The notes under the pieces were generated by a model. The model saw only the letters and a program-made list of their open reading frames with translations, was not told where the DNA came from and ran no database searches. 45,947 bases of DNA from Vectrevirus NIC06P3. Below, in pieces: positions 1-45,947 of the stretch. Each line of letters starts with the position of its first letter. Within the stretch, counting starts at the first letter, position 1. The stretch lies in the sequence record OZ035778.1; one strand, given 5' to 3'. The position numbers and the translations under genes are program-made.

Positions 1-29
1 GACCCGAGTTATAGGATGGAGGGAGAAGC

Positions 30-2227: not shown

Positions 2228-2250
2228 TTACTGGACACTATAGAAGGAAG
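2223..2250 (+). promoter_or_regulatory. SP6-type phage promoter
   Basis: ATTAATTACTGGACACTATAGAAGGAAG; overlaps the terL stop codon. Confidence 0.7.
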
Positions 2251-2389
2251 ACCCAGAGGATAAGAGAAGTAATAAGGATAATATAGGTTAACCTAGGTTA
2301 TATAGGTATGCCTTAGTATGGGTGTACTCCTGTACACCCTATTCCTTACTTCCTTACTATATTTACATAATAGGAGAGAGAGAGAGACA

Positions 2390-2665: not shown

Positions 2666-2683
2666 GAGAAGGAGGAAGATTAC

Positions 2684-2971: not shown

Positions 2972-2978
2972 TATTATC

Positions 2979-3656
2979 GTGTTAGGTATTACAGGACAAC
3001 GAAGTGTAAGTCATCAAGCTAAGGTTGCCACGGAAGTGGCTCCTATCGTTGATATCTCAGATGTGTCTGACGTTAACTCTTATCTAAACCAAAAGTACCT
3101 ATCAGGTAAACAGGAAGGATATACTGTTCTGGCTAAGAAAGGTTCACGTTATTCATTGTATGCTGCAACAGGTTCTAAGCCAGAAGATAAGTGGTTGCCT
3201 TTAGAGCAAGCAACCTTACCTGATTCGAGTGCATTAGAGCTAATTGACACCATCGATGTTGAAGTTGCAAGTGCAAGCGACACAGTAGAGGTTAATGTAA
3301 CCAAAGAGAGGACTGTGTGCATCCAGACGCCTATGAAGGACTTAGCAGGTGATACAGTTTACCGGCAAGAATTGACTGCCAACATTAACCTTACCATTAA
3401 TGAAAACGGAAGCCCAAGCGATACGGTTAAATTAAACATATCAATTCCTAATTTGCCAGGAACATCTAGTGGGTCTTACTATACAGTTGACAATGTGCTG
3501 TGTACTTCTTTTGGAGACGACAGTCCTGTTATTGCCAATATAGATGTCGATAAGGCTACCACTAACTTGATTGCTGTTACACTTCGTAAAGAGACGGCAA
3601 CAGATATTAAGCTGTCTCTTGTAATTAGGTGGTCAATGCCAGTGGAGGTTGTATAA
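2979..3656 (+). CDS. hypothetical protein, paralog family member 3 with C-terminal extension
   Basis: Motif YLSGKQEGYTVL ... EDKWLP; start uncertain (GTG 2979 or TTG 2949); stop overlaps the endolysin ATG (TAATG). Confidence 0.45.
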   Translation: MLGITGQRSVSHQAKVATEVAPIVDISDVSDVNSYLNQKYLSGKQEGYTVLAKKGSRYSLYAATGSKPEDKWLPLEQATLPDSSALELIDTIDVEVASASDTVEVNVTKERTVCIQTPMKDLAGDTVYRQELTANINLTINENGSPSDTVKLNISIPNLPGTSSGSYYTVDNVLCTSFGDDSPVIANIDVDKATTNLIAVTLRKETATDIKLSLVIRWSMPVEVV

Positions 3657-4000
3657 TGCTTAACAAATACTTCAAGCGTAAAGAGTTTGCTTGCCGTTGT
3701 GGGTGCGGCACATCTACTGTTGATGCTGAGTTACTACAGGTAATCACAGATGTGCGTGAGCACTTTGGTTCTCCTGTAGTTATCACTTCTGGGCATCGCT
3801 GCGCCAAGCACAATGCTAATGTAGGTGGAGCTAAAAACTCCATGCATCTTACTGGTAAGGCTGCTGACATTAAGGTACGAGGCATCTTACCATCTGAAGT
3901 GCATAAGTATCTTACTGATAAGTACCAAGGCAAATATGGGATTGGTAAGTACAACTCCTTCACCCACATTGATGTACGGGATGGGTGTGCACGATGGTAG
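3656..4000 (+). CDS. endolysin, peptidase M15-type zinc peptidase
   Basis: KEFACRCGCG ... SGHRC.KHN ... SMHLTGKAAD motif set typical of M15 endolysins; RBS GGAGG at 3644-3648. Confidence 0.75.
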   Translation: MLNKYFKRKEFACRCGCGTSTVDAELLQVITDVREHFGSPVVITSGHRCAKHNANVGGAKNSMHLTGKAADIKVRGILPSEVHKYLTDKYQGKYGIGKYNSFTHIDVRDGCARW

Positions 4001-4108
4001 GTTGTGTTGCATGGTGTGAACGCATGGTTGCTAAGGCTTCAGAGGAAGGTAACTATGAGGATTGGCAGAACTACTCAACTTTATTAGCTCAATGGAAAGG
4101 GAGGTGCA

Positions 4109-4258
4109 ATGAAAAAGCTGTTCAAGTCTAAGAAGGTTGTAGGTGCACTAGTTGCATTGGCAATTGCTCTTGTTTCTGTAGGTCTTGGCGTAGACCTTGG
4201 CTCTGGCACGGAATCCTCTGTGACAGATGTGGTCTGCCAAGTGATCACCTGTGAATAA
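4109..4258 (+). CDS. small single-pass membrane protein (49 aa), possible holin-like lysis accessory
   Basis: MKKLFKSKKVVGALVALAIALVSVGLGV...; RBS GGGAGG; below the 60-aa ORF-track cutoff; position in lysis cassette. Confidence 0.4.
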   Translation: MKKLFKSKKVVGALVALAIALVSVGLGVDLGSGTESSVTDVVCQVITCE

Positions 4259-4472
4259 GTTTCTAGAAGTGCTGGCAGGTCTTATTGGCCTGCTTGTCTC
4301 TGCTAAGAAGAAACAAGAAGAGAAGGAGGCACAAAGTGAGGCGAATCGTGCTAGCGACAATCCTGCTGATTGGTTCGCTGATCATTTCCGGGTGTCAGAA
4401 GGCGTTACCAGAGAATCAAAAGGTGAAGCCACTGAGGCCGACGCTGACGGCAGTTTACGAAGTGGACGATAA
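4251..4472 (+). CDS. i-spanin (Rz-like), GTG start
   Basis: N-terminal TM helix LEVLAGLIGLLVSA followed by a charged periplasmic domain; sits after the endolysin and contains the o-spanin gene in another frame. Confidence 0.5.
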   Translation: MNKFLEVLAGLIGLLVSAKKKQEEKEAQSEANRASDNPADWFADHFRVSEGVTRESKGEATEADADGSLRSGR

Positions 4473-4545
4473 GGTATGCTTTAGTAAGCCGGATGCTACA
4501 CAACTTGGGTTGTACATTTTATCGCTAGAACGCGGTTACAAATAA
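4336..4545 (+). CDS. o-spanin (Rz1-like outer-membrane lipoprotein), GTG start
   Basis: Signal peptide plus lipobox LIISGC; RBS AGAAGGAGG at 4321-4329; overlaps Rz in the +1 frame as in classical Rz/Rz1 pairs. Confidence 0.5.
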   Translation: MRRIVLATILLIGSLIISGCQKALPENQKVKPLRPTLTAVYEVDDKVCFSKPDATQLGLYILSLERGYK

Positions 4546-4574
4546 TACATAGCTTTATGTATCAATCACCTATG

Positions 4575-4597
4575 ATTTAGGTGACACTATAGAAGAG
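4575..4597 (+). promoter_or_regulatory. SP6-type phage promoter (exact SP6 consensus)
   Basis: ATTTAGGTGACACTATAGAAGAG. Confidence 0.85.
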
Positions 4598-4669
4598 ATA
4601 GAGCGGCGATCGTTTGGTCGCCCTTTACTCAAGGTGCTCATGGTGGGCGCTTTAAGTAAAGGAGGAAAC

Positions 4670-5923
4670 ATGGCTCTAACGAGGCTTAGTTCTGATTTAG
4701 TCCGTGACGCAAAAGATGGTGGCACGTTGGGAGAGTGCCTACACGGATTTATGTCATTCTCTCAAGCAAAAGAAATAACAGGCTCTGATCAAGCTGCAAT
4801 GGAGTACCTCTTCTCTAACGCAAAAGTTATCTACATCAACGAGTCTTTGACACTAACAGAGAAGATAACCACAGACAGAAGTTCCGAGGTTACGGTACTT
4901 ACAAAGCCAGGTGTTGTAATAAATAACCTAGGATACATGCCAACAACAAGAACAAACCCCAATCACGTGGTTTCTGGTTTGTCTGTTAGAAACAAATTCA
5001 AACAAGATAATCAGTCTATTAATGGCAGGGTTTATAGTAAGCAAGCTGCATCATTTGAAGCAGCGGTTCATGATGCTGTTAGCAACGGTGGTACTTCTTC
5101 ATCTGAAAACTTTGTTGCACTTTATTCTGGGATAGAGTTCTTTAATTCCACGCTGCAAAGAGGTTGGGCCTTCAACTCTGTAACCAACTGCCATGGTATG
5201 AATACCGGAGATGAGATGTATGGTTATGAGTTGGACTTCAACGTAGATGGCAACCTAGATGGTGGCGGTCAAGCAGTTGGCTTGTACATTGCAGGTATTG
5301 GTGATTTGCGTCAGTGTGCAAACTCTGATGGCATTCGTGTACAACGGACACGTGACCTTGGTGGATTGTATAAGTGGAACCATGGTATTCGAGTTTTTGA
5401 CTCTATGACAGGCCTTGCCGTGATAGATTCAGCTACATATTCCATATTCGCACAAGGTTCTGCCCCTATAGTAAGGCGTAAGGCTGTGCAGGATGGAGGT
5501 TGGAGCTACATCCATAGTCTTAGCCCTACTAATATAACTTGGGGTGTTGATGATTATGGCTACACTTACTCGCCTCGTCTGTATCTTGGGTCTGGTTCTG
5601 GTAAGTCTAAGAACAGGGTTAATCTAGAAGGTGGTGTTTCATTTTACACCACTAACAAACCTGTTGGTTGGGGTGACATTGCTGCTGGGGCTTCTGTAAC
5701 TAAAAACTTCACAGAGTTGTTTGGTCTTGAAGAAGGCGACTACTCTAAGGCGGTGTTTACTGTAGGTGAGTTCCGTGTGGCTAACTCTTACGGAAGTTTG
5801 TTTGTCACTGTCTACACTAACTCAGCAAAAACTCAGGGGTATGTTAAGGTTACTAACCTAGGCTCAACTACTGTAACAGGCGTTGGGATAGGGATCAACC
5901 TGTCAATCCAAAAGGCGGGATAA
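4670..5923 (+). CDS. tailspike / receptor-binding protein 1
   Basis: 418-aa ORF with its own promoter, RBS AAAGGAGGAAAC, MALT N-terminus and leader shared with the next tailspike; Gly/Ser/Thr-rich beta-type composition. Specificity unknown. Confidence 0.55.
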   Translation: MALTRLSSDLVRDAKDGGTLGECLHGFMSFSQAKEITGSDQAAMEYLFSNAKVIYINESLTLTEKITTDRSSEVTVLTKPGVVINNLGYMPTTRTNPNHVVSGLSVRNKFKQDNQSINGRVYSKQAASFEAAVHDAVSNGGTSSSENFVALYSGIEFFNSTLQRGWAFNSVTNCHGMNTGDEMYGYELDFNVDGNLDGGGQAVGLYIAGIGDLRQCANSDGIRVQRTRDLGGLYKWNHGIRVFDSMTGLAVIDSATYSIFAQGSAPIVRRKAVQDGGWSYIHSLSPTNITWGVDDYGYTYSPRLYLGSGSGKSKNRVNLEGGVSFYTTNKPVGWGDIAAGASVTKNFTELFGLEEGDYSKAVFTVGEFRVANSYGSLFVTVYTNSAKTQGYVKVTNLGSTTVTGVGIGINLSIQKAG

Positions 5924-6011
5924 TAGGTATGTGCGGCGTAAGCCGCACTTTACGCGAACTTTCTTTCTTCATAGGCACTCATGGTGGGTGTCTATAAACA
6001 AAGGAGGTTAC

Positions 6012-8006
6012 ATGGCTTTAACCAAAGCTACAACAGTTAATGCATATCAGGGGCGTCCACCCGTTGTAATCACTGATAGCGTCGAAGATAAGTTAATGGA
6101 TGGACGTGCTGGTCTTCGTAAGCACTTTGGTGCTGTTGGGGACGGGCAACATGATGATACAGACGCCTTTGAAAAATGGATGGATTGCCTAACAGATGCA
6201 ACATATAAGCGTTTAGGGGCATTTTCGGACGAACACCCATATATGCTACAGAAAGGGCCACAGCTCATGTTAGAAGATGGGGCTTTCGTGTATGCTGGCA
6301 AAGGTTTGAACATCCCTACCCATCATGCCTTTGTTCTAAACATAATTGGACAAAGTTCCTTATCTACAAAAATTATCCTACCAGAAGATGTGTACTTCTT
6401 GGATTTAGATAACAACCCTGTGTTTTCTTATATGTCAGGTATTACGTTCCATGGTGGACTAGGTGCTGTACGCATGAAGTCTAAGTCATGCAATGCAACA
6501 AGTATGCACATATTTGAGCGTCTACGTATGTCTAGGTATAAGCAGTGTGCCTTTAGTAACAACTCAATAGATATGCCTTACGTTAAAATCAGAGACTCAG
6601 TGTTTATGGGAGATGTATCCAGAGAGACAATTGGACTGTGCTTATCTGGCCTGTCTGCTGGTAGTGATATCACAGGGAATCAGTTCACTGATAACAGGTA
6701 TAATCTCAAGTTAGCTGTTGCAGACAATGGTGTAGAACGTAATGGACCACCAACGCCTCTAAACATAGTAGGTAATGATTTCTATCGGACAGGACACCGC
6801 TCAGGTGCATCTTATGATATTTGGATTGAACCAGGTAAAACAGCTACAAACTCAGGACGGGGACTTGTTTTACAACGTAATAAGTTTGGGCAGGAGAACC
6901 TAAAGAGTCCAGATGCACACATTCTCATTGCAGATAGTGGGACAGGGCAAGGTGGTGATTTAAATGGGGACAGAATGCATGTAGAGACAAAATCTTCTGG
7001 ATTTGTGTCAGGCATTCTTTCAGAAGGCAACAATGTTAACTCTATCAATGGAAGTTACACTGCACCATACATCCGTAGCTTCACACCTAACTTTGGTAAC
7101 AATAAGATCCATGATATTTATGACAATGGAATGCCGTCTCGTATAGTAGAGTTCGCAGGTGGTATTACGCAAAGTGAAGTGGTTAATATATCTCGCACTA
7201 ATATGCTTGAGATTGATCAGTCTCTTGCCCTCCAGAAAGGGGATGTACCTAATTTATTGTCTAACCTAGATGGTGTGTTTCGTGTAAGGGATGATTTGGG
7301 TCTGTTGGCAGGACACCCTCAAGTGCACGACACACCAACCGGTTCTCAGATGTCAGATTTTCTGCATGTATATAAAGGACCAACATCTAGTCTTGCTGTT
7401 GCAGAAGCAACGCGCTTGGCTATTGATAACTCCTATGGAGGTAAAAATGAGGCAGCAGAGTTCACTATGACAACGGAAGATGGACGTGCAGTTGCAACGG
7501 TGACAGGGCTTGTTGCTGGTGATACTTTCTGGTTAGATTTTGAGGTAAAGAGATCTGCTGACAATGCGGCCCCTCGTGTGCTCTTCGAGGTACTAGATTC
7601 AAGTGCGAGTACCTTACTTCTTCGAAGGACTATACTGTTAGATGCGAAGCAGAGATGGCAGAAAGTTGTGCTACCTTTTGTGCCAAACAGTTCTGGTAGT
7701 ATCTTTGTTCGCTTTAAGGCGAAAGGTTGGACACCTTCTAATAAGAAGTTTCAAGTAGGAAACCTTAATGTATACCGCAACCATACACCAGTTAACACTG
7801 GACATAATGGAGGTTTATCTTCCTCTTGGAGTTCACAGCACATCCTTATTGGGTCTTACCACTTATGGGTAGATGCAACTGGCGCATTGCGTATCAAAGA
7901 TGGCGCACCTACGTCTGTTAACGATGGTGTCATCGTTGGCAGTCAGTCAGAAAGTGTTAGCCAACAAGTATCGGGTGATGGTATACAAACCATTGATAGT
8001 GTCTAA
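6012..8006 (+). CDS. tailspike 2, pectate-lyase-like beta-helix (probable polysaccharide depolymerase)
   Basis: HFGAVGDGQHDDTDAFEKW motif typical of right-handed beta-helix tailspikes; RBS AAAGGAGG; MALT N-terminus. Confidence 0.65.
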   Translation: MALTKATTVNAYQGRPPVVITDSVEDKLMDGRAGLRKHFGAVGDGQHDDTDAFEKWMDCLTDATYKRLGAFSDEHPYMLQKGPQLMLEDGAFVYAGKGLNIPTHHAFVLNIIGQSSLSTKIILPEDVYFLDLDNNPVFSYMSGITFHGGLGAVRMKSKSCNATSMHIFERLRMSRYKQCAFSNNSIDMPYVKIRDSVFMGDVSRETIGLCLSGLSAGSDITGNQFTDNRYNLKLAVADNGVERNGPPTPLNIVGNDFYRTGHRSGASYDIWIEPGKTATNSGRGLVLQRNKFGQENLKSPDAHILIADSGTGQGGDLNGDRMHVETKSSGFVSGILSEGNNVNSINGSYTAPYIRSFTPNFGNNKIHDIYDNGMPSRIVEFAGGITQSEVVNISRTNMLEIDQSLALQKGDVPNLLSNLDGVFRVRDDLGLLAGHPQVHDTPTGSQMSDFLHVYKGPTSSLAVAEATRLAIDNSYGGKNEAAEFTMTTEDGRAVATVTGLVAGDTFWLDFEVKRSADNAAPRVLFEVLDSSASTLLLRRTILLDAKQRWQKVVLPFVPNSSGSIFVRFKAKGWTPSNKKFQVGNLNVYRNHTPVNTGHNGGLSSSWSSQHILIGSYHLWVDATGALRIKDGAPTSVNDGVIVGSQSESVSQQVSGDGIQTIDSV

Positions 8007-8356
8007 AAGTAGATAGGCTGTACGGCAGAATACGCAGGAACTTATTGCTTCATATCGTAACGTGAAGAAATAATTTTGCATCGTCTGCGTAGCAGTTAGT
8101 ATCTTAGTGTAACAAAGGGCTGACCTAGGTTGGCTCTTCATGAAGGAGGCAACATGATTTGGATTCACACGTATGGTGTAGGGCCGTTCAAGAAGAAGGT
8201 ACTCAGGAAGATTCATGAGTCCGAGGAATCAGCCTTAGCCAGCCAGAAGGTACTTGGTGGTACTGTCCAGTGCTACATGAAGAAGCCACAAGGCTTTAGC
8301 TTAGTATAATACAATAGTTAATATGAAAGGTTAGGTGTATGTTGTAGGGAGGTTTA

Positions 8357-8620
8357 ATGGTCATTGTCTCTAGTAAGAAGAAGAAGCAGAGTGAAATGGA
8401 TAAGATAGTGCAGACAGGTCTTGCTGCTAAGTCTGGTCAGCCACTCAATACTGGCACTAGTTCAATGGACAAGATCGTTGAAACAGGGAAACAGGCAATG
8501 TCTGGTGGGTTGGACAAGGGTGCACGGAAGCAGGCTGAGTTCAATAAGATTATTGATTTCGGTAAGGAAGCTAAGAGGGAATTCTTAAGACCATCTGCGG
8601 TAGAACCAGTAAGACACTAG
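8357..8620 (+). CDS. hypothetical protein with internal repeat MDKIV(Q/E)TG
   Basis: 87-aa ORF, Lys-rich; location in the genome right-end region; coding status uncertain. Confidence 0.3.
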   Translation: MVIVSSKKKKQSEMDKIVQTGLAAKSGQPLNTGTSSMDKIVETGKQAMSGGLDKGARKQAEFNKIIDFGKEAKREFLRPSAVEPVRH

Positions 8621-8670
8621 GTAGATTCTTAGTCCTGTACAAGGATTAACCAAAGTCAAAATTTTGATAT

Positions 8671-9590
8671 AGGCGTGTGTGAGCTCTCTCGCCCTCGCCC
8701 TCGCCGGGTTGCCCCCCCCCCCCCCCGCCCCCCCCCGCCGCGCCGGGGGCCGGGGGGGGGGCGGGGGGCGGGGGGGGGGCCGGGCCCGCCGCGCGCCGCC
8801 ACCCGGGAGGAGGCCCCCGCGGCCGTAGACGCGCTGTGCCTGAGCGTCCCCGCCGCGGCCGAGACGGCCCTGCGGCGTCTCCTGGTCGGGGAGGCCGCGG
8901 CGCCTCAGCGCGAGGACGCCGGGTCGACGGCGGCGGCGCCGGCCGGACCGGGCTCCTCCTCGGGCGAGCCCGGCGAGGGCGCGCTCACGGACCAGGCCAG
9001 CCAGAGCCCCAGCGCGTAGAGCGGCAGACCCATCACGAGACGGGCGACGCCCAGGGCCGTCGCCGCGTCCGCGAGGTAGAGCGGCACCTGCACGCCCAGC
9101 CGCAGCGCGAAGACGGCCGCCATCACCCAGGTGGCCGCCGCGTAGGCGCGCCGGCGGCGGGGGTCCGCACGCCATGCGGTCCCCTCCCCGCGCACGAGGC
9201 CGAGGATCAGGCCCACCACGGGCCAGCCCGCGAGGATCGAGACGAGGAACGCGAGGCCGTAGCCGGCGTTCGTGATGAAGCCCCAGAGGTAGTAGTCCCG
9301 GGCCTGCCCCGTGGTCAGGGCCACCGCCACCGAGAGCACGACGACGACGAGCCCGGCCAGGACCTGCGCGGGCGACTGGCGCTGCGCGAGCCGGACCACG
9401 CCCATGAGGACGGCCACGCCCGCGGCGGCCACGCCCGAGGGCCACACCTGCTGGGCCCCCGTGGTTTGGGGGGGTCGTTGTGGTCTGAATCCGCGCGTTT
9501 TCACAATGTAAATTTTTTTTTTTGAGGGGTGGTTGTGCCCGCCCCCCCCGCCCCCCGGGGGGGGCCCCCCCCCCCCCCCCCCCCCCATAT
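8671..9590. other. foreign high-GC block bounded by C/G homopolymer tracts (probable chimeric/artefactual insert)
   Basis: Abrupt composition shift; C16/C8/G10-type runs at 8711-8790 and a C22 run at 9565-9586; T11 run at 9514-9524; minus-strand frame reads like a truncated polytopic membrane protein. Confidence 0.6.
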
Positions 9591-9659
9591 GGGTGGCCTT
9601 GGTGATTGGCTTAGGAATTGGGCTGGGCGGGGCCGTCTTCGACGGGTTGGCTGGGGGGC

Positions 9660-10236
9660 TTGCCTTGTACTATCTTAGTGATACACAAGGGAGGACGCCT
9701 AGGAAGCGCTAGGGCACGCCTTAGTATTGGACAAGGTGATTGCCTTAGTGCAACCACTTTGGGCTTACACAGGCCGTTTTAGGGCCATTCTGGGCTATTG
9801 ACAGGGTGGGCGTGGGTGGGCTATCTGTTCGTTTCGTTCACTCCGCTTGCGCTACGTTCACTCGCTCACGTGTACCTTAGGTTATTGCTTGATGGGTAGC
9901 TTAAGTTAACCTTAGTGGATTGCCTTAGTTAAAGCCTTAGTGCTTCACTTAGTATCAGCTTAGTAGTGTACCTTAGTTGGTCTTAGTTCCTTATCTTAGT
10001 GATTGCACATGCAAGCATATAAGATGCCAATAGGTCGCGGTCGGTAGACCGCTAAAGAAAGAGAATAGTAATAAGATGCAGCAGGAGGAACACCAGAAAC
10101 CTAGCCAACCTAACCTATCCTAGCCTTGTATCTATTGCTTATCCTTAGTCTCACACGTTAGACAACCTAGGTTTATATTAGTAGTTGTGACCTGTATCAC
10201 ATAAATAATCTATCTTAGTGAAACTTAGTGTTGACA
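9660..10236. repeat. array of short CTTAGT(G) repeats in the genome left-end non-coding region
   Basis: At least 15 copies of (C)CTTAGT(G), eight of them within about 100 bp (9900-10010); analogous to the short repeat arrays near T7 termini. Confidence 0.55.
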
Positions 10237-12631: not shown

Positions 12632-15259
12632 ATGCAAGATTTACATGCTATCCAGCTTCAATTAGAAGAAGAAATGTTTAACGGTGGCATTCGTCGCTTT
12701 GAAGCAGACCAACAGCGCCAAATTGCATCCGGTAACGAATCCGATACAGCTTGGAATCGCCGCTTATTATCCGAGTTAATCGCGCCAATGGCTGAAGGTA
12801 TTCAGGCTTATAAGGAAGAGTACGAAGGTAAAAGAGGCCGTGCACCGCGTGCATTAGCTTTCATTAACTGTGTAGAAAACGAAGTGGCAGCATATATCAC
12901 GATGAAAATCGTTATGGATATGCTGAACACGGATGTAACCTTGCAAGCGATAGCCATGAATGTAGCGGACCGCATCGAAGACCAAGTCCGCTTTAGCAAG
13001 CTGGAAGGTCACGCCGCAAAATACTTTGAGAAAGTTAAGAAGTCACTTAAGGCAAGTAAGACTAAAGCCTATCGCCATGCGCATAATGTAGCGGTAGTTG
13101 CTGAAAAGTCAGTGGCTGACCGTGACGCAGACTTCTCCCGCTGGGAGGCGTGGCCTAAAGATACCTTGCTGCAAATAGGCACTACCCTGCTTGAAATCTT
13201 AGAGAATAGTGTGTTCTTCAACGGTCAGCCTGTTTTCCTCCGCACCTTGCGCACTAATGGCGGCAAGCATGGCGTTTACTACTTACAGACTAGTGAACAC
13301 GTTGGCGAGTGGATAACTGCATTTAAAGAGCACGTAGCGCAGCTTAGTCCTGCCTATGCGCCTTGCGTTATCCCTCCGCGTCCGTGGGTGTCACCATTTA
13401 ACGGTGGTTTTCACACTGAGAGAGTGGCTAGTCGTATCCGTCTAGTTAAAGGCAACCGCGAGCACGTCCGCAAGCTAACCAAAAAGCAAATGCCAGCGGT
13501 TTACAAGGCTGTTAACGCTTTGCAGGCGACCAAGTGGCAGGTTAATAAGGAAGTGTTGCAGGTTGTTGAGGATGTTATCCGCCTAGACCTTGGTTATGGT
13601 GTGCCTTCCTTTAAGCCACTCATCGACCGCGAGAATAAGCCAGCTAATCCGGTTCCGCTTGAGTTCCAGCACCTGCGCGGTCGTGAACTGAAAGAAATGT
13701 TAACACCGGAACAATGGCAAGCCTTCATCAACTGGAAGGGTGAATGTACTAAGCTGTATACCGCAGAGACTAAGCGTGGCAGTAAGTCGGCGGCAACCGT
13801 TCGCATGGTCGGGCAAGCCCGTAAATACAGCCAGTTTGACGCTATTTATTTTGTATATGCACTGGATAGCCGTTCACGCGTTTATGCGCAATCTAGCACG
13901 CTCTCGCCGCAGTCAAACGACCTAGGCAAGGCATTGCTACGATTTACCGAAGGGCAGCCGCTAAACAGCTCTGAAGCGCTTAAATGGTTTTTGGTGAACG
14001 GGGCAAATAACTGGGGTTGGGATAAGAAAACCTTCGACGTCCGCACCGCTAATGTGCTGGATGGCGAATTTCAGGACATGTGCCGCGATATTGCAGCCGA
14101 TCCTCTGACCTTCACTCAATGGGTAAATGCCGATTCACCTTATGGGTTTCTTGCATGGTGCTTTGAGTACGCTCGCTATTTGGATGCACTGGAGGAAGGC
14201 ACACAAGATCAGTTCATGACACACCTGCCAGTACACCAAGACGGTAGCTGTTCCGGCATTCAGCACTATAGCGCGATGTTACGCGATGAAGTAGGTGCGA
14301 AAGCGGTAAACCTTAAGCCGTCCGATGAGCCGCAAGATATTTATGGGGCCGTTGCGCAAGTAGTTATCCAGAAGAACTATGCTTACATGAATGCAGATGA
14401 TGCAGAGACTTTCACGTCTGGCAGCGTCACCCTTACAGGTGCGGAATTGCGTAGCATGGCTAGCGCGTGGGATATGATAGGAATCACTCGCGGCTTAACC
14501 AAAAAGCCAGTGATGACCTTGCCTTACGGCTCCACCCGCTTAACCTGCCGTGAGTCGGTGATCGATTATATCGTTGATTTAGAAGAAAAAGAGGCACAAA
14601 GAGCTATTGCAGAAGGGCGGACGGCTAACCCTGTTCATCCCTTTGATAATGACCGTAAAGATTACTTAACTCCGGGCGCGGCGTATAACTATATGACCGC
14701 TCTTATCTGGCCTTCAATCTCTGAGGTTGTGAAAGCTCCGATAGTTGCCATGAAGATGATTAGGCAACTTGCACGCTTTGCAGCTAAAAGGAATGAAGGG
14801 TTAGAATACCCTCTGCCTACTGGCTTCATATTGCAACAAAAGATAATGGCTACCGATATGCTCCGCGTATCCACTTGTTTGATGGGTGAAATCAAGATGA
14901 GTCTACAGATTGAAACCGATGTGGTGGATGAAACGGCAATGATGGGTGCGGCTGCTCCTAACTTTGTGCATGGTCATGATGCTAGTCACCTTATCCTGAC
15001 TGTATGTGACCTCGTGGATAAAGGTATTACATCCATTGCAGTTATTCATGACTCTTTCGGCACTCATGCAGGACGTACCGCAGACTTGCGTGACAGCTTA
15101 AGGGCAGAAATGGTTAAGATGTATCAAAACCATAATGCCTTGCAAAACCTGCTGGATGTGCACGAAGAACGTTGGTTAGTAGACACCGGAATCCAAGTAC
15201 CCGAGCAAGGGGCGTTTGACCTTAACGAAATCTTAATATCTGACTATTGCTTCGCATAA
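12632..15259 (+). CDS. single-subunit DNA-dependent RNA polymerase, SP6-like
   Basis: 875 aa; near-colinear with the SP6 RNA polymerase as I recall it ([32 protein letters not shown]..., [15 protein letters not shown], ... FA C-terminus). Confidence 0.97.
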
Positions 15260-34624: not shown

Positions 34625-35362
34625 ATGCCTGTAATTAGACAAACAAGTAAAGTAGGCAACCTGATGGAAGGTGTTGCCTTCCAGATTATTGATAGTAAAC
34701 TTGAAGCGGTCAACTTATGTATGCGAGCTATTGGTCGTGAGGGTGTGGATTCTCTCGACTCAGGGGATCTCGATGCAGAAGATGCAAGCAAGATGATTGA
34801 TATCGTGTCCCAGCGATTCCAGTACAATAAGGGTGGTGGTTGGTGGTTCAACCGCGAACCTAACTGGCAACTTGCACCAGACACCAACGGTGAGGTTAAC
34901 CTCCCTAATAACTGCCTTGCTGTATTGCAATGTTATGCTTTAGGTGAGAAGAAAGTACCCATGACTATGCGTGCAGGTAAATTGTACTCTACTTGGAGTC
35001 ACACCTTTGATATGCGCAAGCATGTTAATGCAAATGGTATGCTGCGACTTACCTTACTTACACTACTCCCTTATGAGCACCTCCCTACAAGTGTAATGCA
35101 AGCAATTGCATATCAAGCTGCGGCAGAGTTTATTGTATCTAAGGATGCAGACAAAACTAAACTGACTACAGCACAGCAGATTGCGACCCAGCTTCTTATG
35201 GATGTGCAGTCTGAACAAATGTCGCAGAAGAGGTTGAACATGCTAGTACATAACCCGACGCAGCGACAGTTTGGCATCATGGCTGGTGGCTCTCAGAATG
35301 TACCTGCTTACTCTCATTCACCTTATGATAGTTGGGCGCTCCGTCCGTGGGAGGACCGTTAA
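34625..35362 (+). CDS. tail tubular protein A (T7 gp11-like)
   Basis: RBS AGGAGG; size and gene order; stop overlaps next start (TAATG). Confidence 0.8.
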   Translation: MPVIRQTSKVGNLMEGVAFQIIDSKLEAVNLCMRAIGREGVDSLDSGDLDAEDASKMIDIVSQRFQYNKGGGWWFNREPNWQLAPDTNGEVNLPNNCLAVLQCYALGEKKVPMTMRAGKLYSTWSHTFDMRKHVNANGMLRLTLLTLLPYEHLPTSVMQAIAYQAAAEFIVSKDADKTKLTTAQQIATQLLMDVQSEQMSQKRLNMLVHNPTQRQFGIMAGGSQNVPAYSHSPYDSWALRPWEDR

Positions 35363-37764
35363 TGGAAGTACAAGGTTCATTAGGTAGACAAATCCAAGGG
35401 ATTAGCCAGCAGCCGCCAGCGGTACGCTTGGATGGTCAGTGCACAGCTATGGTTAATATGATACCTGATGTAGTGAATGGCACTCAATCCCGCATGGGTA
35501 CAACTCATATTGCAAAGTTACTTGATGCGGGGACTGATGATATGGCCACACACCATTATCGCAGAGGTGATGGTGATGAAGAGTATTTCTTCACATTGAA
35601 GAAAGGACAAGTCCCTGAGATATTCGATAAGTATGGGCGCAAATGTAATGTGACCTCACAAGATGCACCTATGACTTATTTGGCTGAGGTGATAAACCCA
35701 AGAGAAGATGTGCAATTTATGACGATAGCTGATGTTACTTTCATGCTTAACCGCAGGAAGGTAGTTAAAGCTAGTAACAGAAAGTCACCCAAAGTTGGAA
35801 ACAAAGCCATTGTGTTTTGTGCATATGGTCAATACGGTACATCTTATTCCATTATAATTAATGGTGTCAACGCTGCTAGTTTTAAAACACCAGATGGTGG
35901 AAGCGCAGAGCAGGTTGAACAAATTCGAACGGAACATATCACTTCGGAATTGTACTCTAAGTTGCAGCAATGGAGTGGAGTTGGTGATTATGAAATACAA
36001 AGAGACGGTACAAGTATATTTATAGAAAGACGTGATGGTGCAAGTTTTACAGTAACAACCACCGATGGTGCAAAGGGGAAAGACTTAGTGGCTATCAAGA
36101 ATAAGGTCAGCTCTACCGACCTCCTTCCTTCTCGTGCACCTGAAGGTTATAAGGTGCAAGTATGGCCTACTGGAAGCAAACCCGAGTCTCGTTATTGGTT
36201 GGAAGCAGAGCCAAAAGAGGGTAACTTAGTATCTTGGCAAGAGACGGTTGCTGCTGACGTATTGCTTGGTTTTGATAAAGGCACTATGCCTTATATCATT
36301 GAGCGTACGGGCATTATCGATGGTATTGCTCAATTTAAGATTAGGCAAGGCGATTGGGAAGATCGCAAGGTAGGTGATGACCTCACTAACCCTATGCCGT
36401 CTTTCATTGATGAAGAAGTACCTCAGACAATTGGCGGGATGTTCATGGTGCAGAACCGTTTATGCTTTACAGCAGGTGAGGCAGTCATTGCATCTCGTAC
36501 TTCCTACTTCTTTGACTTCTTTCGTTACACAGTGATCTCAGCTTTAGCTACTGACCCGTTTGACATCTTCTCAGATGCGAGTGAAGTTTACCAATTGAAA
36601 CATGCAGTGACTTTAGACGGTGCTACTGTGCTGTTCTCTGATAAATCTCAATTTATCTTGCCTGGAGATAAGCCTCTGGAGAAATCTAATGCCTTACTCA
36701 AACCTGTAACTACATTTGAGGTGAACAACAAAGTTAAGCCAGTTGCCACTGGTGAATCCGTAATGTTCGCTACAAACGATGGAGCATACTCTGGTGTACG
36801 AGAGTTCTATACAGACTCTTATAGTGATACTAAGAAGGCACAGGCAATCACAAGCCATGTGAATAAACTCATCGAAGGTAACATTATTAACATGGCAGCA
36901 AGCACTAATGTCAACCGCCTGCTTGTCACCACTGATAAGTATCATAATATAATTTACTGCTATGATTGGTTATGGCAGGGAACAGAACGTGTTCAATCAG
37001 CTTGGCACGTGTGGAAGTGGCCTTTGGGTACAAAGGTGAGAGGTATGTTTTATTCTGGTGAATTACTTTACCTGCTTCTGGAGCGAGGCAATGGTGTATA
37101 TCTGGAGAAGATGGATATGGGAGATGCACTGACCTATGGTTTAAATGACCGTATCCGAATGGACAGGCAGGCAGAGTTAACCTTCAAGCATTTCAAAGCA
37201 GAAGATGAGTGGGTATCTGAACCACTCCCTTGGGTTCCTACTAACCCAGAACTCTTGGATTGCATCTTAATAGAAGGCTGGGATTCATATATTGGCGGCT
37301 CTTTCTTATTCAAGTACAACCCCGGTGATAACACCTTATCTACAACTTTTGATATGTATGATGATAACCACGTAAAAGCAAAGGTCATTGTTGGTCAGAT
37401 TTACCCTCAAGAGTTTGAACCTACACCTGTGGTTATCAGAGACAATCAAGACCGTGTATCCTATATTGATGTACCAGTTGTTGGATTGGTCCACCTTAAC
37501 CTCGACATGTACCCTGATTTCTCCGTAGAAGTTAAGAACATTAAGAGTGGTAAAGTACGTAGAGTGTTAGCATCAAACCGCATAGGTGGTGCTCTAAACA
37601 ATACGGTAGGTTATGTTGAACCAAGAGAAGGTGTCTTCAGATTTCCACTGAGAGCTAAGAGTACGGATGTTGTTTATAGTATTATTGTAGAGTCACCTCA
37701 CACATTCCAGCTTCGTGATATTGAGTGGGAAGGAAGCTACAATCCAACCAAAAGGAGGGTCTAA
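35362..37764 (+). CDS. tail tubular protein B (T7 gp12-like)
   Basis: About 800 aa; gene order after tail tube A. Confidence 0.8.
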   Translation: MEVQGSLGRQIQGISQQPPAVRLDGQCTAMVNMIPDVVNGTQSRMGTTHIAKLLDAGTDDMATHHYRRGDGDEEYFFTLKKGQVPEIFDKYGRKCNVTSQDAPMTYLAEVINPREDVQFMTIADVTFMLNRRKVVKASNRKSPKVGNKAIVFCAYGQYGTSYSIIINGVNAASFKTPDGGSAEQVEQIRTEHITSELYSKLQQWSGVGDYEIQRDGTSIFIERRDGASFTVTTTDGAKGKDLVAIKNKVSSTDLLPSRAPEGYKVQVWPTGSKPESRYWLEAEPKEGNLVSWQETVAADVLLGFDKGTMPYIIERTGIIDGIAQFKIRQGDWEDRKVGDDLTNPMPSFIDEEVPQTIGGMFMVQNRLCFTAGEAVIASRTSYFFDFFRYTVISALATDPFDIFSDASEVYQLKHAVTLDGATVLFSDKSQFILPGDKPLEKSNALLKPVTTFEVNNKVKPVATGESVMFATNDGAYSGVREFYTDSYSDTKKAQAITSHVNKLIEGNIINMAASTNVNRLLVTTDKYHNIIYCYDWLWQGTERVQSAWHVWKWPLGTKVRGMFYSGELLYLLLERGNGVYLEKMDMGDALTYGLNDRIRMDRQAELTFKHFKAEDEWVSEPLPWVPTNPELLDCILIEGWDSYIGGSFLFKYNPGDNTLSTTFDMYDDNHVKAKVIVGQIYPQEFEPTPVVIRDNQDRVSYIDVPVVGLVHLNLDMYPDFSVEVKNIKSGKVRRVLASNRIGGALNNTVGYVEPREGVFRFPLRAKSTDVVYSIIVESPHTFQLRDIEWEGSYNPTKRRV

Positions 37765-38492
37765 TGGCTATAGGTTCAGCCGTTATGTCTGGTATGTCCT
37801 CTCTGGGTAGTATGTTTGCAGGTAGCGGTGCAGCAGCCGCTGCAGGTGGTACTGCCGCCGCAGCAGGTGGTGGAGGTTTACTAGGTTCCGTGGGAAGTTT
37901 CCTAAGTGGTTCCACTGGTGGCTTCTCCAATACAGGCTTGCTTAGTGCAGGTATGCAAGGTCTTGGTCTTCTAGGTAATCTTTTTGGTGGAAGTGATGAA
38001 GCCAAAGCTATGAAGAAAGCTCAGGAGGAGCAATGGCGGCAGCAGTTAATTGCTACACAAGAGGCATACAAAACGGTAGCAGATGCAGAACGCTCTGCTG
38101 CTAAACAGTACCATGCAGACGCAATAAGCAATCAGGCTTCACTACTACAGCAGCGAGCACAGGTTGCATTACTTGCAGGTGCTACGGGAACTGGTGGTAA
38201 CTCTGTGTCTTCTATGCTGAATGATTTGGCAGCAGAGGGAGGGAGGAATCAGAGTACAATTATTGATAACTATGAGAATCAGAAGATTAATTTCACCAAC
38301 CAGCTTAAGTCCATTCAACGTGGTGGACAGATGCAGATGCGTGAGTTTAGGAAACCTTCTGCCGTAAGTACCTTGGTTCAAGGTATTCCAAGTCTTGCAT
38401 CTGCCTATGTAATGGGTAGCAAGTCTGGTACGGCATTAGGTAAAGCCTTAACTGATTCTCGTACATATTCATCTGGAACAAGAGGTATTTAA
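37764..38492 (+). CDS. internal virion protein (Gly/Ala-rich N-terminus)
   Basis: RBS AAAGGAGGG; first of three internal core genes by order. Confidence 0.6.
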   Translation: MAIGSAVMSGMSSLGSMFAGSGAAAAAGGTAAAAGGGGLLGSVGSFLSGSTGGFSNTGLLSAGMQGLGLLGNLFGGSDEAKAMKKAQEEQWRQQLIATQEAYKTVADAERSAAKQYHADAISNQASLLQQRAQVALLAGATGTGGNSVSSMLNDLAAEGGRNQSTIIDNYENQKINFTNQLKSIQRGGQMQMREFRKPSAVSTLVQGIPSLASAYVMGSKSGTALGKALTDSRTYSSGTRGI

Positions 38493-41440: not shown

Positions 41441-41457
41441 TACCTAACTCAAGGCTT

Positions 41458-41473
41458 GTCTCACATGTGAGAC
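41458..41473. promoter_or_regulatory. 16-bp palindrome GTCTCACATGTGAGAC, copy 6 (extended stem)
   Basis: Exact core with flanks GCTTGTCTCAC / GTGAGACAGGTC. Confidence 0.5.
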
Positions 41474-41504
41474 AGGTCTTTATGATAGGCACTATGGAGG
41501 AACT

Positions 41505-44500
41505 ATGGAACAAGATATTAAGACTAATTGGGCTGGATATGTCCAGTCTACTCCTGAGCCGTTTTCTATTGAGGCGGCTCCGGTATCGGCTCCTACGATA
41601 CGCCAGCGTAATGAGTTACAAGAGCAAGTTCTTGAAGCTAAAGCGGACGCGGATATCTTAGGGGCCGTAGGTGCTGCCTTCCAGAATGAGTGGTTGGCAT
41701 TCGGAGGTAAGAGGTGGTATGACCGTGCCACTGCTGATTTCCCACCTCAGCCTGACTTTGAAATCCAGCCAGATCGACGTGAAGCACTCCGCTTCAAATA
41801 TGGCACAGATATGATGCAGAAAATCACAGAAGGGGTCAGATCCGAGGATGAGCTAAACTTCCGTATTCAGAATGCAGATGATGACCTTGAGCGTAACAAA
41901 CGTATCGCTCAGGCAGGCTGGGTAGGATCTGTGGCAACGATTGGCGCTGCTGTGCTTGACCCTGTGGGATGGGTTGCCTCTATCCCAACTGGCGGTGCAG
42001 CTAAGGTTGGACTTGTAGGGCGTGCTGTACGTGGTGCTGTCGCTGCTGGTGTGAGTAATGCCGCTATTGAGTCCGTATTAGTCCAAGGCGACATGACCCG
42101 TGATTTAGATGACATTATGGTAGCACTAGGATCAGGTATGGCTATGGGTGGCGTCATTGGCGCTGTAGCGCGTGGTAGGGCCACTAAGCTCAGTGAGCAA
42201 GGGGATGACAGAGCGGCAAGCGTTGTGCGCAGTGCAGATGCAGGGGACCGCTATGTTCGTGCCGTTGCCGATGACAGCATCGGTGCGATGCGTGTTAAGG
42301 GCGCAGAGGTTCTCACTGAGGGTGCATTCGATATCTCCAGCAAAGGTGAAGATTTACTGAAAACCTTGCAGCGAGAAGGTAATGCGATTGATATGACACC
42401 TCGCCGCTGGGCTGGAACTATGTCTGCCCTTGGTACTGTCGTTCATTCGTCTCAGGATGCAAGTGTGCGTGGCCTAGGTGCTCGCCTGTTTGAGTCTCCG
42501 CAAGGCTTAGGTATGCAGAAGGCATCGGCTAGTCTCATGCAGAATACTAACTTGAATCGTCTGAAATCTGCGGATATGAACCGTTTCAATGATGGGTTCG
42601 ATTTATGGCTCAAAGAGAATAATATCAATCCGGTTGCAGGTCATACTAACTCTCACTATGTGCAGCAATATAATGAGAAGGTATGGGAAGCTGTACGCAT
42701 CGGTATGGATGAGTCTACGCCTAAGTCTATCCGTATGGCAGCAGAGGGGCAGCAAGCTATGTATCGTGAAGCATTAGCATTACGTCAACGCTCTGGTGAA
42801 GCTGGGTTTGAAAAGGTTAAAGCAGATGATAAGTACATGCCTGATATTTTTGACAGCATGAAGGCTCGTCGTCAATTCGGTATGCACGATAAAGAGGACA
42901 TCATTGAGCTATTCTCTCGTGCATACCAGAATGGTTCTCGTAAGGTTCCAAAGGAAGTGGCTGATGAGATTGCACGTGCACAAGTAAACCGTGTTGTGGA
43001 TGCCACTCTGACAGGACGTATGAGTTTCGAAAAGGCTATGTCTGGTCAAACTAAAGCAGAGTATGAAGCAATAATGCGCAAGGCAGGCTTCAGTGATGAA
43101 GAAATTGAAAAGATGGTAGAAGCTCTGGATAATAAAGAAACCAGAGATAATATCTCTAACCGAGCTAAGATGAGTTTAGGCTTAGATGTTACTCAAGAGT
43201 ACAAAGGCATTCGTATGCGTGATTTTATGAATACTAACGTGGAAGAGTTAACAGATAACTACATGAAGGAAGCGGCAGGTGGTGCTGCATTGGCTCGTCA
43301 AGGTTTCTCTACCTATCAGGCTGCACTTAATGCAATTGACCTTGTAGAGCGAAATGCACGAAATGCAGCTAAAGATACAAAAGCACACGCACAATTTGAA
43401 GCGGAGTCTGCTAAGATTCGTCAATCAGAGCCTGATTACAAGAAGGCACAAGAGCAGATTGAAGAGTTAAAGAAGCGACTTAAATTGAAAGAGAAAGATG
43501 AAGCAGCAGGTCTGGCTATTGATGAAGAAATACGTCAGATGCGAGAAGGGCTTCGCTTGATTATGGGTAAATCTATCGATGCAGACCCACAAGCCTTGTC
43601 TACTAAAATGCTGCGTCGTGGTCGTGACATCACAGGTGTACTTCGTTTAGGTCAGATGGGCTTCGCACAGCTAGGTGAACTTGCTAACTTCATGGGTGAG
43701 TTTGGTATTGCTGCAACCACTATAGCTTTAGGTAAGCAATTCCGCTTCACCTCTAAGGCTTTGCGTAATGGCGATGGCTTCTTCCGAGATAAGAACTTGG
43801 CAGAAGTAGAGCGAATGGTAGGCTACATTGGTGAGGATAACTGGTTAACAACCAAGGGTGCACGCCCCGATGAGTTTGGTGATGTAACCACAGTGCGAGG
43901 GATGATGGCTCACTTTGACCAATCCATGAACTCAATACGCCGTGCTCAGACAAACCTATCACTCTTCCGCATGGCTCAAGGTTCTCTGGAGCGAATGACT
44001 AATAGGCAAATAGCCCTATCTTTCATCGACCACCTTGAAGGTAAGAAGGTTATTCCTCAGAAGAAACTGGAGGAACTTGGTCTTACTCAAGAGTTCATGT
44101 CTAGTCTACAGAAGCACTACGATGCTAATTCTAAGGGTTCTGGTCTGCTTGGCTTCGATACCATGCCTTATGCAATGGGTGAGACTTTAGCTAATGCTAT
44201 CCGTCGTAAGTCTGGTTTAATCATTCAGCGTAACTTCATTGGTGATGAAGGTATCTGGATGAACAAAGCACTAGGTAAGACGTTTGCACAGCTTAAGTCA
44301 TTCTCTCTGGTATCTGGTGAGAAGCAATTCGGCCGAGGTATCCGGCATGATAAGATCGGTCTAGCTAAGAAGACAGCCTTTGGCTTTGCTTTGGGTTCAA
44401 TGGTGTATGCAGCGAAAGCCTATGTGAACTCTATCGGACGAGAAGACCAAGATGAATATCTGGAAGAGAAGTTATCGCCTAAAGGGTTAGCCTTTGGTGC

Positions 44501-44813
44501 AATGGGCATGATGAGTACAACTGCTGTATTTAGCCTAGGTGGAGATTTCTTAGGGGGCTTAGGTGTTTTACCTTCCGAACTCATTCAATCACGTTATGAA
44601 GCGGGTTTCCAAAGCAAAGGACTGATTGACCAGATACCGCTAGTTGGCGTTGGTGCAGATGCAGTTAATCTGGCTAACTCAATTAAGAAGTATGCAGAAG
44701 GTGACACAGAAGGCGTAGATATTGCTAGGCGAGCACTACGTCTTGTGCCACTTACCAATGTAATAGGTGTCCAGAACGCATTGCGTTATGGCTTAGATGA
44801 ACTGGAGGACTGA
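41505..44813 (+). CDS. large internal virion/core protein (T7 gp16-like)
   Basis: 1102 aa; last of three consecutive internal-protein genes before the tail-fibre adaptor. Confidence 0.7.
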   Translation: MEQDIKTNWAGYVQSTPEPFSIEAAPVSAPTIRQRNELQEQVLEAKADADILGAVGAAFQNEWLAFGGKRWYDRATADFPPQPDFEIQPDRREALRFKYGTDMMQKITEGVRSEDELNFRIQNADDDLERNKRIAQAGWVGSVATIGAAVLDPVGWVASIPTGGAAKVGLVGRAVRGAVAAGVSNAAIESVLVQGDMTRDLDDIMVALGSGMAMGGVIGAVARGRATKLSEQGDDRAASVVRSADAGDRYVRAVADDSIGAMRVKGAEVLTEGAFDISSKGEDLLKTLQREGNAIDMTPRRWAGTMSALGTVVHSSQDASVRGLGARLFESPQGLGMQKASASLMQNTNLNRLKSADMNRFNDGFDLWLKENNINPVAGHTNSHYVQQYNEKVWEAVRIGMDESTPKSIRMAAEGQQAMYREALALRQRSGEAGFEKVKADDKYMPDIFDSMKARRQFGMHDKEDIIELFSRAYQNGSRKVPKEVADEIARAQVNRVVDATLTGRMSFEKAMSGQTKAEYEAIMRKAGFSDEEIEKMVEALDNKETRDNISNRAKMSLGLDVTQEYKGIRMRDFMNTNVEELTDNYMKEAAGGAALARQGFSTYQAALNAIDLVERNARNAAKDTKAHAQFEAESAKIRQSEPDYKKAQEQIEELKKRLKLKEKDEAAGLAIDEEIRQMREGLRLIMGKSIDADPQALSTKMLRRGRDITGVLRLGQMGFAQLGELANFMGEFGIAATTIALGKQFRFTSKALRNGDGFFRDKNLAEVERMVGYIGEDNWLTTKGARPDEFGDVTTVRGMMAHFDQSMNSIRRAQTNLSLFRMAQGSLERMTNRQIALSFIDHLEGKKVIPQKKLEELGLTQEFMSSLQKHYDANSKGSGLLGFDTMPYAMGETLANAIRRKSGLIIQRNFIGDEGIWMNKALGKTFAQLKSFSLVSGEKQFGRGIRHDKIGLAKKTAFGFALGSMVYAAKAYVNSIGREDQDEYLEEKLSPKGLAFGAMGMMSTTAVFSLGGDFLGGLGVLPSELIQSRYEAGFQSKGLIDQIPLVGVGADAVNLANSIKKYAEGDTEGVDIARRALRLVPLTNVIGVQNALRYGLDELED

Positions 44814-45787
44814 TGGGTTATACTTTCACAGAACACACAGCCAACGGTACGCAAGTGACTTATCCTTTTAGGTTTGCTGGTAGGGATAAGGGTTATCTTC
44901 GTGCCTCAGATGTAAGAGTGGATACTCTTCAAGGGGAGACTTGGACCAAGGTCACATCTGGCTGGCAATTAACTGGTACAAACCAGATTACTTTTGATGT
45001 AGCACCAGCAGCAGGTTTGAGGATCCGTATTCGAAGGGAAGTGCCAAAAGAAAACCCATATGCAGAGTTTGACCGTGGTGTCACCCTTGATATGAAATCT
45101 TTGAATGGTTCCTTTATTCACAACCTAGAGGCAACCCAAGAGCTTCTAGATGGGTTTTACCCTGAAGGTTATTATATCAAGCAAAATGTATCATGGGGTG
45201 GTAATAAGATCACTGACCTTGCAGATGGCACAGCACCGAATGATGCAGTGAATAAAGGACAGATGGACGCCCTTGATAAGAAACACACAGACTGGAATAA
45301 GACGCAAGATGAGCAGATTGATGGTATCATTCGTAGCTTCGTCAGTAACATATCTCACCGTTCTGCACCTTGGACTTATTTAGCTGTGGGTGGTGAAGAT
45401 AAGGTAAAACCTCCTTTCGTCTTCCGAGCAGCACTAGTGTGGCGCGATGGTGTATATCAGGATGAGCAAGCTGGTGCTTTTGAAATTAGAGATAATACTA
45501 TATTTCTAGCTAAGCCTTTGCTTAGAAAAGGCGAGCGCGTGTCTGTTCTCCTTGGTTCTCGTGTAGCAGTACCAGACAAAGGTGAGGTTCTCCAGCTTGA
45601 GTTCAACACAGTGGCAGGCTATACGGAGATAAATCTAGGTATGCGTGTATCAGAGGTGTCTGTCTTTCTTGATGGGCTTCTCCAATCTCTAGGCTCTTAC
45701 GAACTTATAGATGACAATAAGTTGGTATTTAGTGAGCCACTACCAGATTGCACCGTGCTGGTTCAAGTTAAATCTGATACAAAGTAG
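44813..45787 (+). CDS. tail-fibre-like adaptor protein (homolog of the T7 gp17 N-terminal domain)
   Basis: TYPFRFAGRDKGYLRASDV and GNKITDLADGTAPNDAVNKGQMDAL parallel the T7 gp17 N-terminal segments; 324 aa with no long fibre shaft. Confidence 0.7.
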   Translation: MGYTFTEHTANGTQVTYPFRFAGRDKGYLRASDVRVDTLQGETWTKVTSGWQLTGTNQITFDVAPAAGLRIRIRREVPKENPYAEFDRGVTLDMKSLNGSFIHNLEATQELLDGFYPEGYYIKQNVSWGGNKITDLADGTAPNDAVNKGQMDALDKKHTDWNKTQDEQIDGIIRSFVSNISHRSAPWTYLAVGGEDKVKPPFVFRAALVWRDGVYQDEQAGAFEIRDNTIFLAKPLLRKGERVSVLLGSRVAVPDKGEVLQLEFNTVAGYTEINLGMRVSEVSVFLDGLLQSLGSYELIDDNKLVFSEPLPDCTVLVQVKSDTK

Positions 45788-45798
45788 GAGGTGTATTT

Positions 45799-45947
45799 GT
45801 GGTAGACTCAGATATCATCAATGATACGCTGAAGTGGGTTCCGGGTGGTATCGTAACCAGTACAACCCTCTTAGGTATCAGTTGGGAAAACTGGGTTTAC
45901 ATCTTAACCGCAATCTATACTATGTTGCAGATTGGGGAATGGGTATG
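45799..45947 (+). CDS. holin-like membrane protein, 3'-truncated by the window edge
   Basis: GTG start after RBS AGGAGG; hydrophobic segments; frame stays open to the last base and, if joined to position 1, continues to a TAA at 44-46. Confidence 0.45.
   Translation, partial: MVDSDIINDTLKWVPGGIVTSTTLLGISWENWVYILTAIYTMLQIGEWV

Follow-up and report, generated by a model that had tools for sequence, protein, structure and literature searches.

The gene 17.5 product of phage T7 belongs to Pfam family PF10746 (Phage_holin_2_2) and to the T7 holin family of TCDB. T7 gp17.5 works as a holin in a lambda reporter, and T7 deleted for the gene lyses only 2.8 min late; gp17.5 is dispensable for lysis, and a second T7 holin is suspected (PMC2680503). 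In an experiment cited in the same paper, gp17.5 complemented the lysis of a lambda S-null phage (PMC2680503). In the SP6-like phage KBNP1315, whose terminal repeat is 208 bp long, the holin boosts endolysin-driven lysis, causes only moderate growth inhibition when produced alone and was proposed to be a pinholin (PMC4640515). A single membrane span is predicted for a related SP6-like holin (PMC4640515).

Here we analyzed the complete record of Vectrevirus NIC06P3 (OZ035778.1), a stretch of 45,947 nucleotides that is referred to below as the window, and in which a gene of this family is split between the last and the first bases. We are close to certain that the window is a rotated copy of a complete linear Vectrevirus genome with a single terminal repeat, that its T7-type holin gene is intact, and that the block at positions 8712-9586 is an assembly chimera.

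Results

The window is a complete Vectrevirus genome in rotated order

By homology the phage is assigned to Vectrevirus (K1-5/K1E/SP6-like, Autographiviridae, Molineuxvirinae). The K1-5 genome (AY370674) maps collinearly onto the window at approximately 90% identity, in rotated order and with one copy of the repeat. Collinearity over the whole genome at about 90% DNA identity is also seen with K1E. For instance, K1-5 35384-38312 corresponds to window 17-2943, and the K1-5 sequence from 2342 onwards to the window from 11673 onwards. We found 12 SP6-type promoter cores (GACACTATAGRAG) in the window, all on the + strand, versus 0.13 expected by chance. The collinearity with K1-5 and these 12 promoter cores indicate that the window holds a complete Vectrevirus genome. 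It also encodes an SP6-type single-subunit RNA polymerase of 875 aa (12632-15259).

A T7-type holin gene continues from the last to the first base

The initial annotation had described a holin-like frame that starts at GTG 45799, is still open at the final base and continues, once base 45947 is joined to base 1, to a TAA at 44-46, giving a protein of roughly 65 aa. All of this was borne out when we joined the ends and predicted the ORF again. The 5' part of the gene (45799-45947, + strand, 149 nt) consists of codons 1-49 and the TG of Trp50, and the 3' part (1-46, + strand) starts with the G that completes this Trp codon, followed by the codons for TRVIGWREKRERTQ and by the TAA. The joined product has 64 aa: MVDSDIINDTLKWVPGGIVTSTTLLGISWENWVYILTAIYTMLQIGEWVWTRVIGWREKRERTQ. 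GTG 45799 is the sole in-frame upstream start of the wrapped ORF. The upstream gene ends with a TAG at 45785-45787, and a Shine-Dalgarno sequence read directly from the sequence, AGGAGGTG (45786-45793, + strand), is separated from the GTG by a spacer of 5 nt. The gene called at 4343-4537 on contig L087 (ERR12949723_2323, 13,242 bp) of the Logan assembly of run ERR12949723 begins at the same GTG, and its 64-aa product is identical to that of the joined ORF. Since the chance that 15 further codons stay open is (61/64)^15, or about 0.5, the open frame is insignificant when taken by itself, and we judged the join by homology and by independent sequence.

The joined ORF matched PF10746 over the whole profile (positions 1-61 of 61) with 55.0 bits, the cut-off being 25.4, and PHROG 920 'holin' over positions 3-65 of 67 with E = 3.7e-20, which makes the product a full-length member of both families. 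The 49 residues encoded at the window end scored 46.3 bits against PF10746 (profile positions 1-51), and it is the addition of the 15 residues from the window start that raised this score to 55.0 bits. The last nine residues, WREKRERTQ, are identical to those of K1-5 gp38, and Trp56, encoded by window 17-19, does not vary when the protein is aligned with its counterparts from T7, SP6, K1-5 and the Klebsiella phage Koku. At 64 aa, and with a net charge of +2 in its last 12 residues (VIGWREKRERTQ), the product is small and has a basic tail, in keeping with the size of about 60-70 aa and the charged C-terminus that mark the family. One clear hydrophobic segment is found at aa 32-50 (Wimley-White octanol -8.6 kcal/mol) and a weak one at aa 11-29 (-3.0); the Kyte-Doolittle maximum is modest (1.02 over 19 residues) and the number of spans is uncertain. 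The 5' part of the gene encodes the weak N-terminal segment and nearly all of the main transmembrane segment, the 3' part encodes the charged tail, which is predicted to be cytoplasmic, and the window break falls exactly where the main helix ends.

The position of the gene between the tail-fibre adaptor and terS, which had been compared with that of T7 gene 17.5, agrees with the order gp37-38-39 in K1-5 and 17-17.5-18 in T7. The adaptor upstream (44813-45787, + strand, 324 aa) is the homologue of K1-5 gp37 by its PF03906 N-terminal domain, its match to phrog_2710 and collinearity with K1-5. Downstream, terS (30-329, + strand; PF11123, phrog_891) starts with a GTG and overlaps the 3' end of the holin gene by 17 nt, and is followed by terL (329-2227, + strand, 632 aa; PF22530, phrog_17672 and a Logan gene call). 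Like the wrapped gene, K1-5 gp38 (Vectrevirus) and the SP6 holin (SP6p39; Zindervirus) encode 64-65 aa in the same Pfam family, with 48% identity, lie between the adaptor (gp37) and terS (gp39) and overlap terS by 17 nt as well (in K1-5, gp38 at 35219-35413 and gp39 at 35397-35696). T7 gp17.5 also has a full-length match to the profile and the same synteny of tail fibre, holin and terS, but only 29% identity to the wrapped protein. The two share 12 invariant residues, including the Trp that precedes the basic tail and, in the main helix, a Y-T-x-x-Q-I-G motif, whereas a 5-residue insertion in the N-terminal segment of the T7 protein has no counterpart here. By homology the wrapped gene is thus classified as a 64-aa holin of the T7 gp17.5 type (presumably class II, a class with two transmembrane segments) and as the orthologue of K1-5 gp38. 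It is a protein of a known kind, a routine orthologue of K1-5 gp38 and T7 gp17.5, and holds little new biology.

Lysis genes and the proposed role of the wrapped holin

The other lysis genes are found downstream of terL, all on the + strand. The endolysin (3656-4000) is a Peptidase_M15_3 protein (PF08291, 114 bits; phrog_894), and we found no N-terminal hydrophobic, signal-anchor or SAR segment in its sequence. A second small membrane protein of 49 aa, with a single pass (4109-4258), matches phrog_4712 'holin' with E = 3e-27; it is labelled as a holin in the SP6 and Koku records and sits between the endolysin and the spanins. A probable i-spanin of 73 aa with an N-terminal hydrophobic segment (4251-4472) was recognized by its position and by phrog_9219, and corresponds to an Rz-like spanin in Koku. 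The gene of a probable o-spanin (4336-4545), with a GTG start, AAGGAGG upstream, a lipobox LIISGC and a match to the phrog_8971 Rz-like spanin (E = 1.5e-37), overlaps the i-spanin gene in another frame. The arrangement differs from that of T7, where the spanins lie between terS and terL and the endolysin is the amidase gp3.5.

By homology, the holin gene would be transcribed late from SP6-type promoters, and its product would gather in the inner membrane through aa 32-50 and, more weakly, aa 11-29, its basic tail remaining cytoplasmic. It would permeabilise the membrane at a set time, the M15 endolysin, its presumed cargo, would then get to the murein, and the spanins (4251-4545) would break the outer membrane last. 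An M15 endolysin without a signal or SAR segment needs a holin to pass the membrane. The 49-aa membrane protein probably shares or modulates this role, and the lysis data for T7 and KBNP1315, taken together with the 'holin' match of this protein, suggest that the wrapped gene may share its role with it.

The wrapped protein may therefore not be the main lysis timer, by analogy with its dispensable T7 orthologue and in view of the second 'holin' encoded here. We consider it improbable, although worth keeping in mind, that the wrapped ORF, while a member of the T7 holin family, is an accessory or pinholin-like timing factor and that the 49-aa phrog_4712 protein is the principal holin. The short delay of lysis in T7 lacking gene 17.5, with its suspected second holin, and the moderate inhibition by the proposed pinholin of KBNP1315 are in line with such a division, as are the location of the 49-aa protein inside the endolysin-spanin cluster and the modest hydrophobicity of the wrapped protein. 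Against it, gp17.5 complemented the lambda S-null defect in the experiment cited above, and a signal-less endolysin needs a hole that passes a folded protein, a point that speaks for neither of the two small proteins. We keep to the wrapped gene as a holin of the T7 gp17.5 type, with a role possibly shared.

A chimeric block interrupts the terminal repeat

The K1-5 record has an exact direct repeat of 234 bp at both ends. The start of this repeat (K1-5 44152, equivalent to position 1) corresponds to window 8689, and the repeat end (234, equivalent to 44385) to window 9823. The window contains a single copy in two pieces, both on the + strand: the left 25 nt, TCTCGCCCTCGCCCTCGCCGGGTTG, at 8687-8711, and the rest at 9587-9823, which ends with ...GGGCTA and is followed by unique left-end sequence from 9824. 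The repeat breaks off after GGGTTG (8711) and resumes at ATATGGG (9587), with 875 bp in between, and the G+C content rises to 57-65% at 8-10 kb of the window. Positions 8712-8776, to which no strand is assigned, are homopolymer junk of 100% G+C (C15 G C9 ... G10 ... G10), with which the Logan contig disagrees from 8727 onwards. They are followed by a foreign fragment of 679 bp on the - strand (8777-9455), which has 96.9% identity to a Micrococcus chromosome and contains a truncated DUF3159 membrane-protein gene, and then by 131 bp of low-complexity junk (9456-9586, no strand; T11, C8, G8, C22) that gave no match to Micrococcus or phage.

We conclude that 8712-9586 is an assembly chimera, made of homopolymer junk and contaminating Micrococcus DNA, that breaks into the repeat after its first 25 nt. 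The window has eight long homopolymers, every one of them within the block, and four complete relatives have none at all. When the block was deleted in silico, a single-piece alignment across the site was regained with 38 relatives. The Logan assembly of ERR12949723 does not contain the Micrococcus piece and breaks at poly-C on both sides of the site, contig L087 ending with C25 G15 and contig L094 starting with C22 (9565). Nine relatives have only C4-C6 at the same site, within a short palindrome, C(4-6)-ATA(T)-G(3-4), that sits about 25 nt from the left genome end; T7 has CCCCCATAGGGGG at a similar place.

Alternatively the GC-rich block could genuinely belong to the phage, as a naturally GC-rich terminus or as DNA taken up from an actinobacterium by horizontal transfer. 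In its favour, the window contig contains it, and the two assemblies agree on long C runs flanking the gap. We nevertheless give this explanation very little credit, for several reasons. The G+C content of the Micrococcus-like fragment is 78.6%, against 45.4% for the phage, and a truncated gene of such a Gram-positive source stands within an enterobacterial phage. Errors at one edge are biased towards G/C: 13 of the 20 mismatches to Micrococcus fall in the first 73 bp, and nearly all mismatches change A/T to G/C. The homopolymer flanks differ between the window and the Logan assembly, and the block interrupts a palindrome of the repeat that is conserved. Finally, no match to the block was found among 50,697 phage records, and it is absent from all of the at least 114 relatives.

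The chimera does leave a question about the C runs themselves, as in both the window and the independent k-mer assembly the gap that separates GGGTTG from ATATGGG is bordered by at least 22 C's on either side. We tentatively raise the possibility, which we hold to be rather unlikely, that a long C tract is real, namely an expanded and probably length-variable poly-C within the repeat palindrome, 25 nt from the left repeat end, which would have disrupted the assembly and allowed reads from contaminating Micrococcus DNA to be joined in. If true, this would place a long C tract in the region of concatemer processing and packaging, something unusual among T7-like phages. Scanning IMG/VR for GGGTTG and a following C10 returned only an unrelated GC-rich contig, and a gapped-pattern search for the repeat palindrome returned no matches, as did a look-up of an ocr-like protein. 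Another idea, that tailing or dark-cycle G calls had put poly-C or poly-G tails on the physical ends, was rejected as a full explanation: the tract coincides with a natural C run that lies 25 nt into the repeat, and both flanks are rich in C on one and the same strand.

Predicted physical ends of the genome

The DNA of phages of this type is linear and bears a direct terminal repeat of about 265 bp. The physical ends of the present genome are predicted to be at 8687/8689 (left) and 9823 (right), and not at the window edges. The linear records of fTuEco01, KAW1A4500 and ACG-C91 start at the equivalent of window 8687; as no exact repeat was found at both record ends of fTuEco01, this record supports the position of the left end only. 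Of the earlier claim that the true ends lie near 8.6-9.6 kb, the location stands and is refined by homology to K1-5; the GC-rich segment at 8712-9586 is a chimeric insert and not the natural terminus. One repeat copy, flanked by unique right-end sequence on one side and unique left-end sequence on the other, indicates a circularised assembly in which the repeat has collapsed. The assembler would have collapsed the two copies to one, making the contig effectively circular, and the record would then have been written out from 29 nt upstream of terS, inside holin codon 50. The unit genome without the 8712-9586 block is about 45,077 bp, and the virion DNA with a second repeat copy would be about 45.3 kb.

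A self-closing contig is also expected from a phage that packages by headful, the virion DNA of which is truly circularly permuted, without fixed ends, so that any opening point is valid. This seems to us very unlikely, since the terminase is of the T7 type (PF22530, PF11123), the genome is collinear with that of K1-5, whose record carries the exact repeat at both ends, the repeat sequence and its start motif are conserved, three more linear records start at most 2 nt from the site, and the related phage KBNP1315 has a terminal repeat as well (PMC4640515). Our preferred interpretation remains a linear genome with fixed ends and a direct terminal repeat.

The two ends of the window are adjacent in the genome

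No overlap of 8 nt or more was found between the ends of the window. We searched for Logan contigs using terS and the 87-aa gene at 8357-8620. Contig L087 corresponds to window 41457-45947 at 100% identity and runs on directly from 45947 into window 1-8737 at 99.99% identity. The joined sequence is also carried unbroken by contigs L088, L090 and L092, which come from three other metagenome samples. A 2-kb query across the join was aligned by megablast as a single piece (query 928-2001, the join being at 1001|1002) at about 91% identity with more than 40 Vectrevirus genomes, and the features under these alignments are an annotated holin, terS and terL. The DNA of Klebsiella phage Koku could be aligned base for base through the join. 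The last and the first bases of the record are adjacent in the genome and the holin gene is intact in the phage. The rotated collinearity with K1-5 and the independent contigs across the join substantiate the initial view of the record as a circularised assembly of a whole genome. The idea that the window edges are true physical ends or a real break, with a holin that is truly truncated or absent, has as its sole point the stop of the linear record inside the ORF and is practically without probability, and we count it as refuted by the four independent contigs that hold the joined sequence (one at 100%/99.99%), by the completion of the Pfam profile and the restored K1-5 C-terminus, by the internal position of the homologue of the K1-5 terminal repeat (8689-9823) and by the same cut in other database records.

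The cut-point is shared with other records

The records OZ035792 (T205P5) and OZ035769 (PDP21P3) are opened at exactly the homologous base and their holins wrap alike. They end with ...GGGGACTGGTTTTA and begin with TAATAAGTTC..., in the same alignment column as the window, which ends with ...GGGGAATGGGTATG and starts with GACCCGAGTT.... In at least three more OZ records (OZ035776, OZ035735 and OZ035816) the holin match stops at residue 48, at most 5 nt from the record end. The OZ Vectrevirus records with a split holin carry no annotation. Like the window with its collapsed repeat, OZ035792 and OZ035769 have a single repeat copy, at about 8.0-8.3 kb; unlike the window they show the natural C4-C6 run, and their repeat is free of foreign DNA. 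The OZ records follow the naming scheme of the Guelin collection, which was made with Nextera libraries, MiniSeq, SPAdes and manual resolution in Bandage. A cut base common to several ENA records points to a convention of the pipeline or dataset and not to independent random openings, and the cut-point indeed looks like a dataset convention. The record had been thought to be a circularised assembly opened at an arbitrary point; it is circularised, but the opening at the same base in OZ035792 and OZ035769 speaks against an arbitrary one. We looked for an upstream terS start that might explain a cut 29 nt before the terS GTG and found none, an in-frame TAG being present at window 12-14, and the stretch upstream of the terS GTG in the OZ records has no terS start codon either.

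Consequences for curation

The wrap of the holin gene is an artefact of the way in which the record was opened. Gene prediction on the linear record will miss the holin, as it will in at least five public Vectrevirus records with this cut (the exact base was seen in two). The record would be better re-opened at about 8687, with the second repeat copy added and the holin annotation restored. The 875 bp at 8712-9586 are to be deleted from the terminal repeat, as they inflate the genome length by about 2%; left in place, they would lead to erroneous reports of horizontal transfer or of a DUF3159 protein encoded by the phage. The value of the result lies in curation only, the finding itself being ordinary and already known.

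Mosaic composition and other genes of the window

The first 55 residues of the wrapped holin are 83-87% identical to the holins of Klebsiella Molineuxvirinae (Koku_004, HY and cp4), which are thus much closer to it than K1-5 gp38 is, whereas from window 17 onwards the DNA shares 91% identity with K1-5. This switch from a Klebsiella-like N-terminal part to K1-5-like DNA indicates that a mosaic breakpoint falls in roughly the last 30 nt of the holin gene. In the C-terminus of the adaptor, in most of the holin and in the tailspike region (3656-8716, 91%), the phage resembles Klebsiella phage vB_Kpn_004_Koku. For terS, terL and most of the genome the identity is about 90% to K1-5/K1E-like coliphages. 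To judge from these sequences, the host of this phage may carry a Klebsiella-type capsule.

Both tailspike genes (4634-5923 and 5931-8006) differ from those for the lyase and endosialidase of K1-5. No PHROG matched the first, and for the second a match to the capsule-depolymerase family PF26986 is given in the Logan gene table. Upstream of the endolysin, the window encodes a 235-aa protein (2949-3656; phrog_32357, function unknown) whose N-terminus is related to two upstream paralogues labelled 'acetyl-CoA acetyltransferase'. The gene is also present in fTuEco01 and Koku, and K1-5 does not have it between its gp42 and gp43 homologues. Two SP6-type promoter cores, GACACTATAGAAG, are located at 121-141, inside the coding sequence of terS, and at 2226-2246, just after terL. 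Across all 21 nt, the SP6 consensus is matched perfectly at a single site, 4575-4595, which lies upstream of the first tailspike gene.
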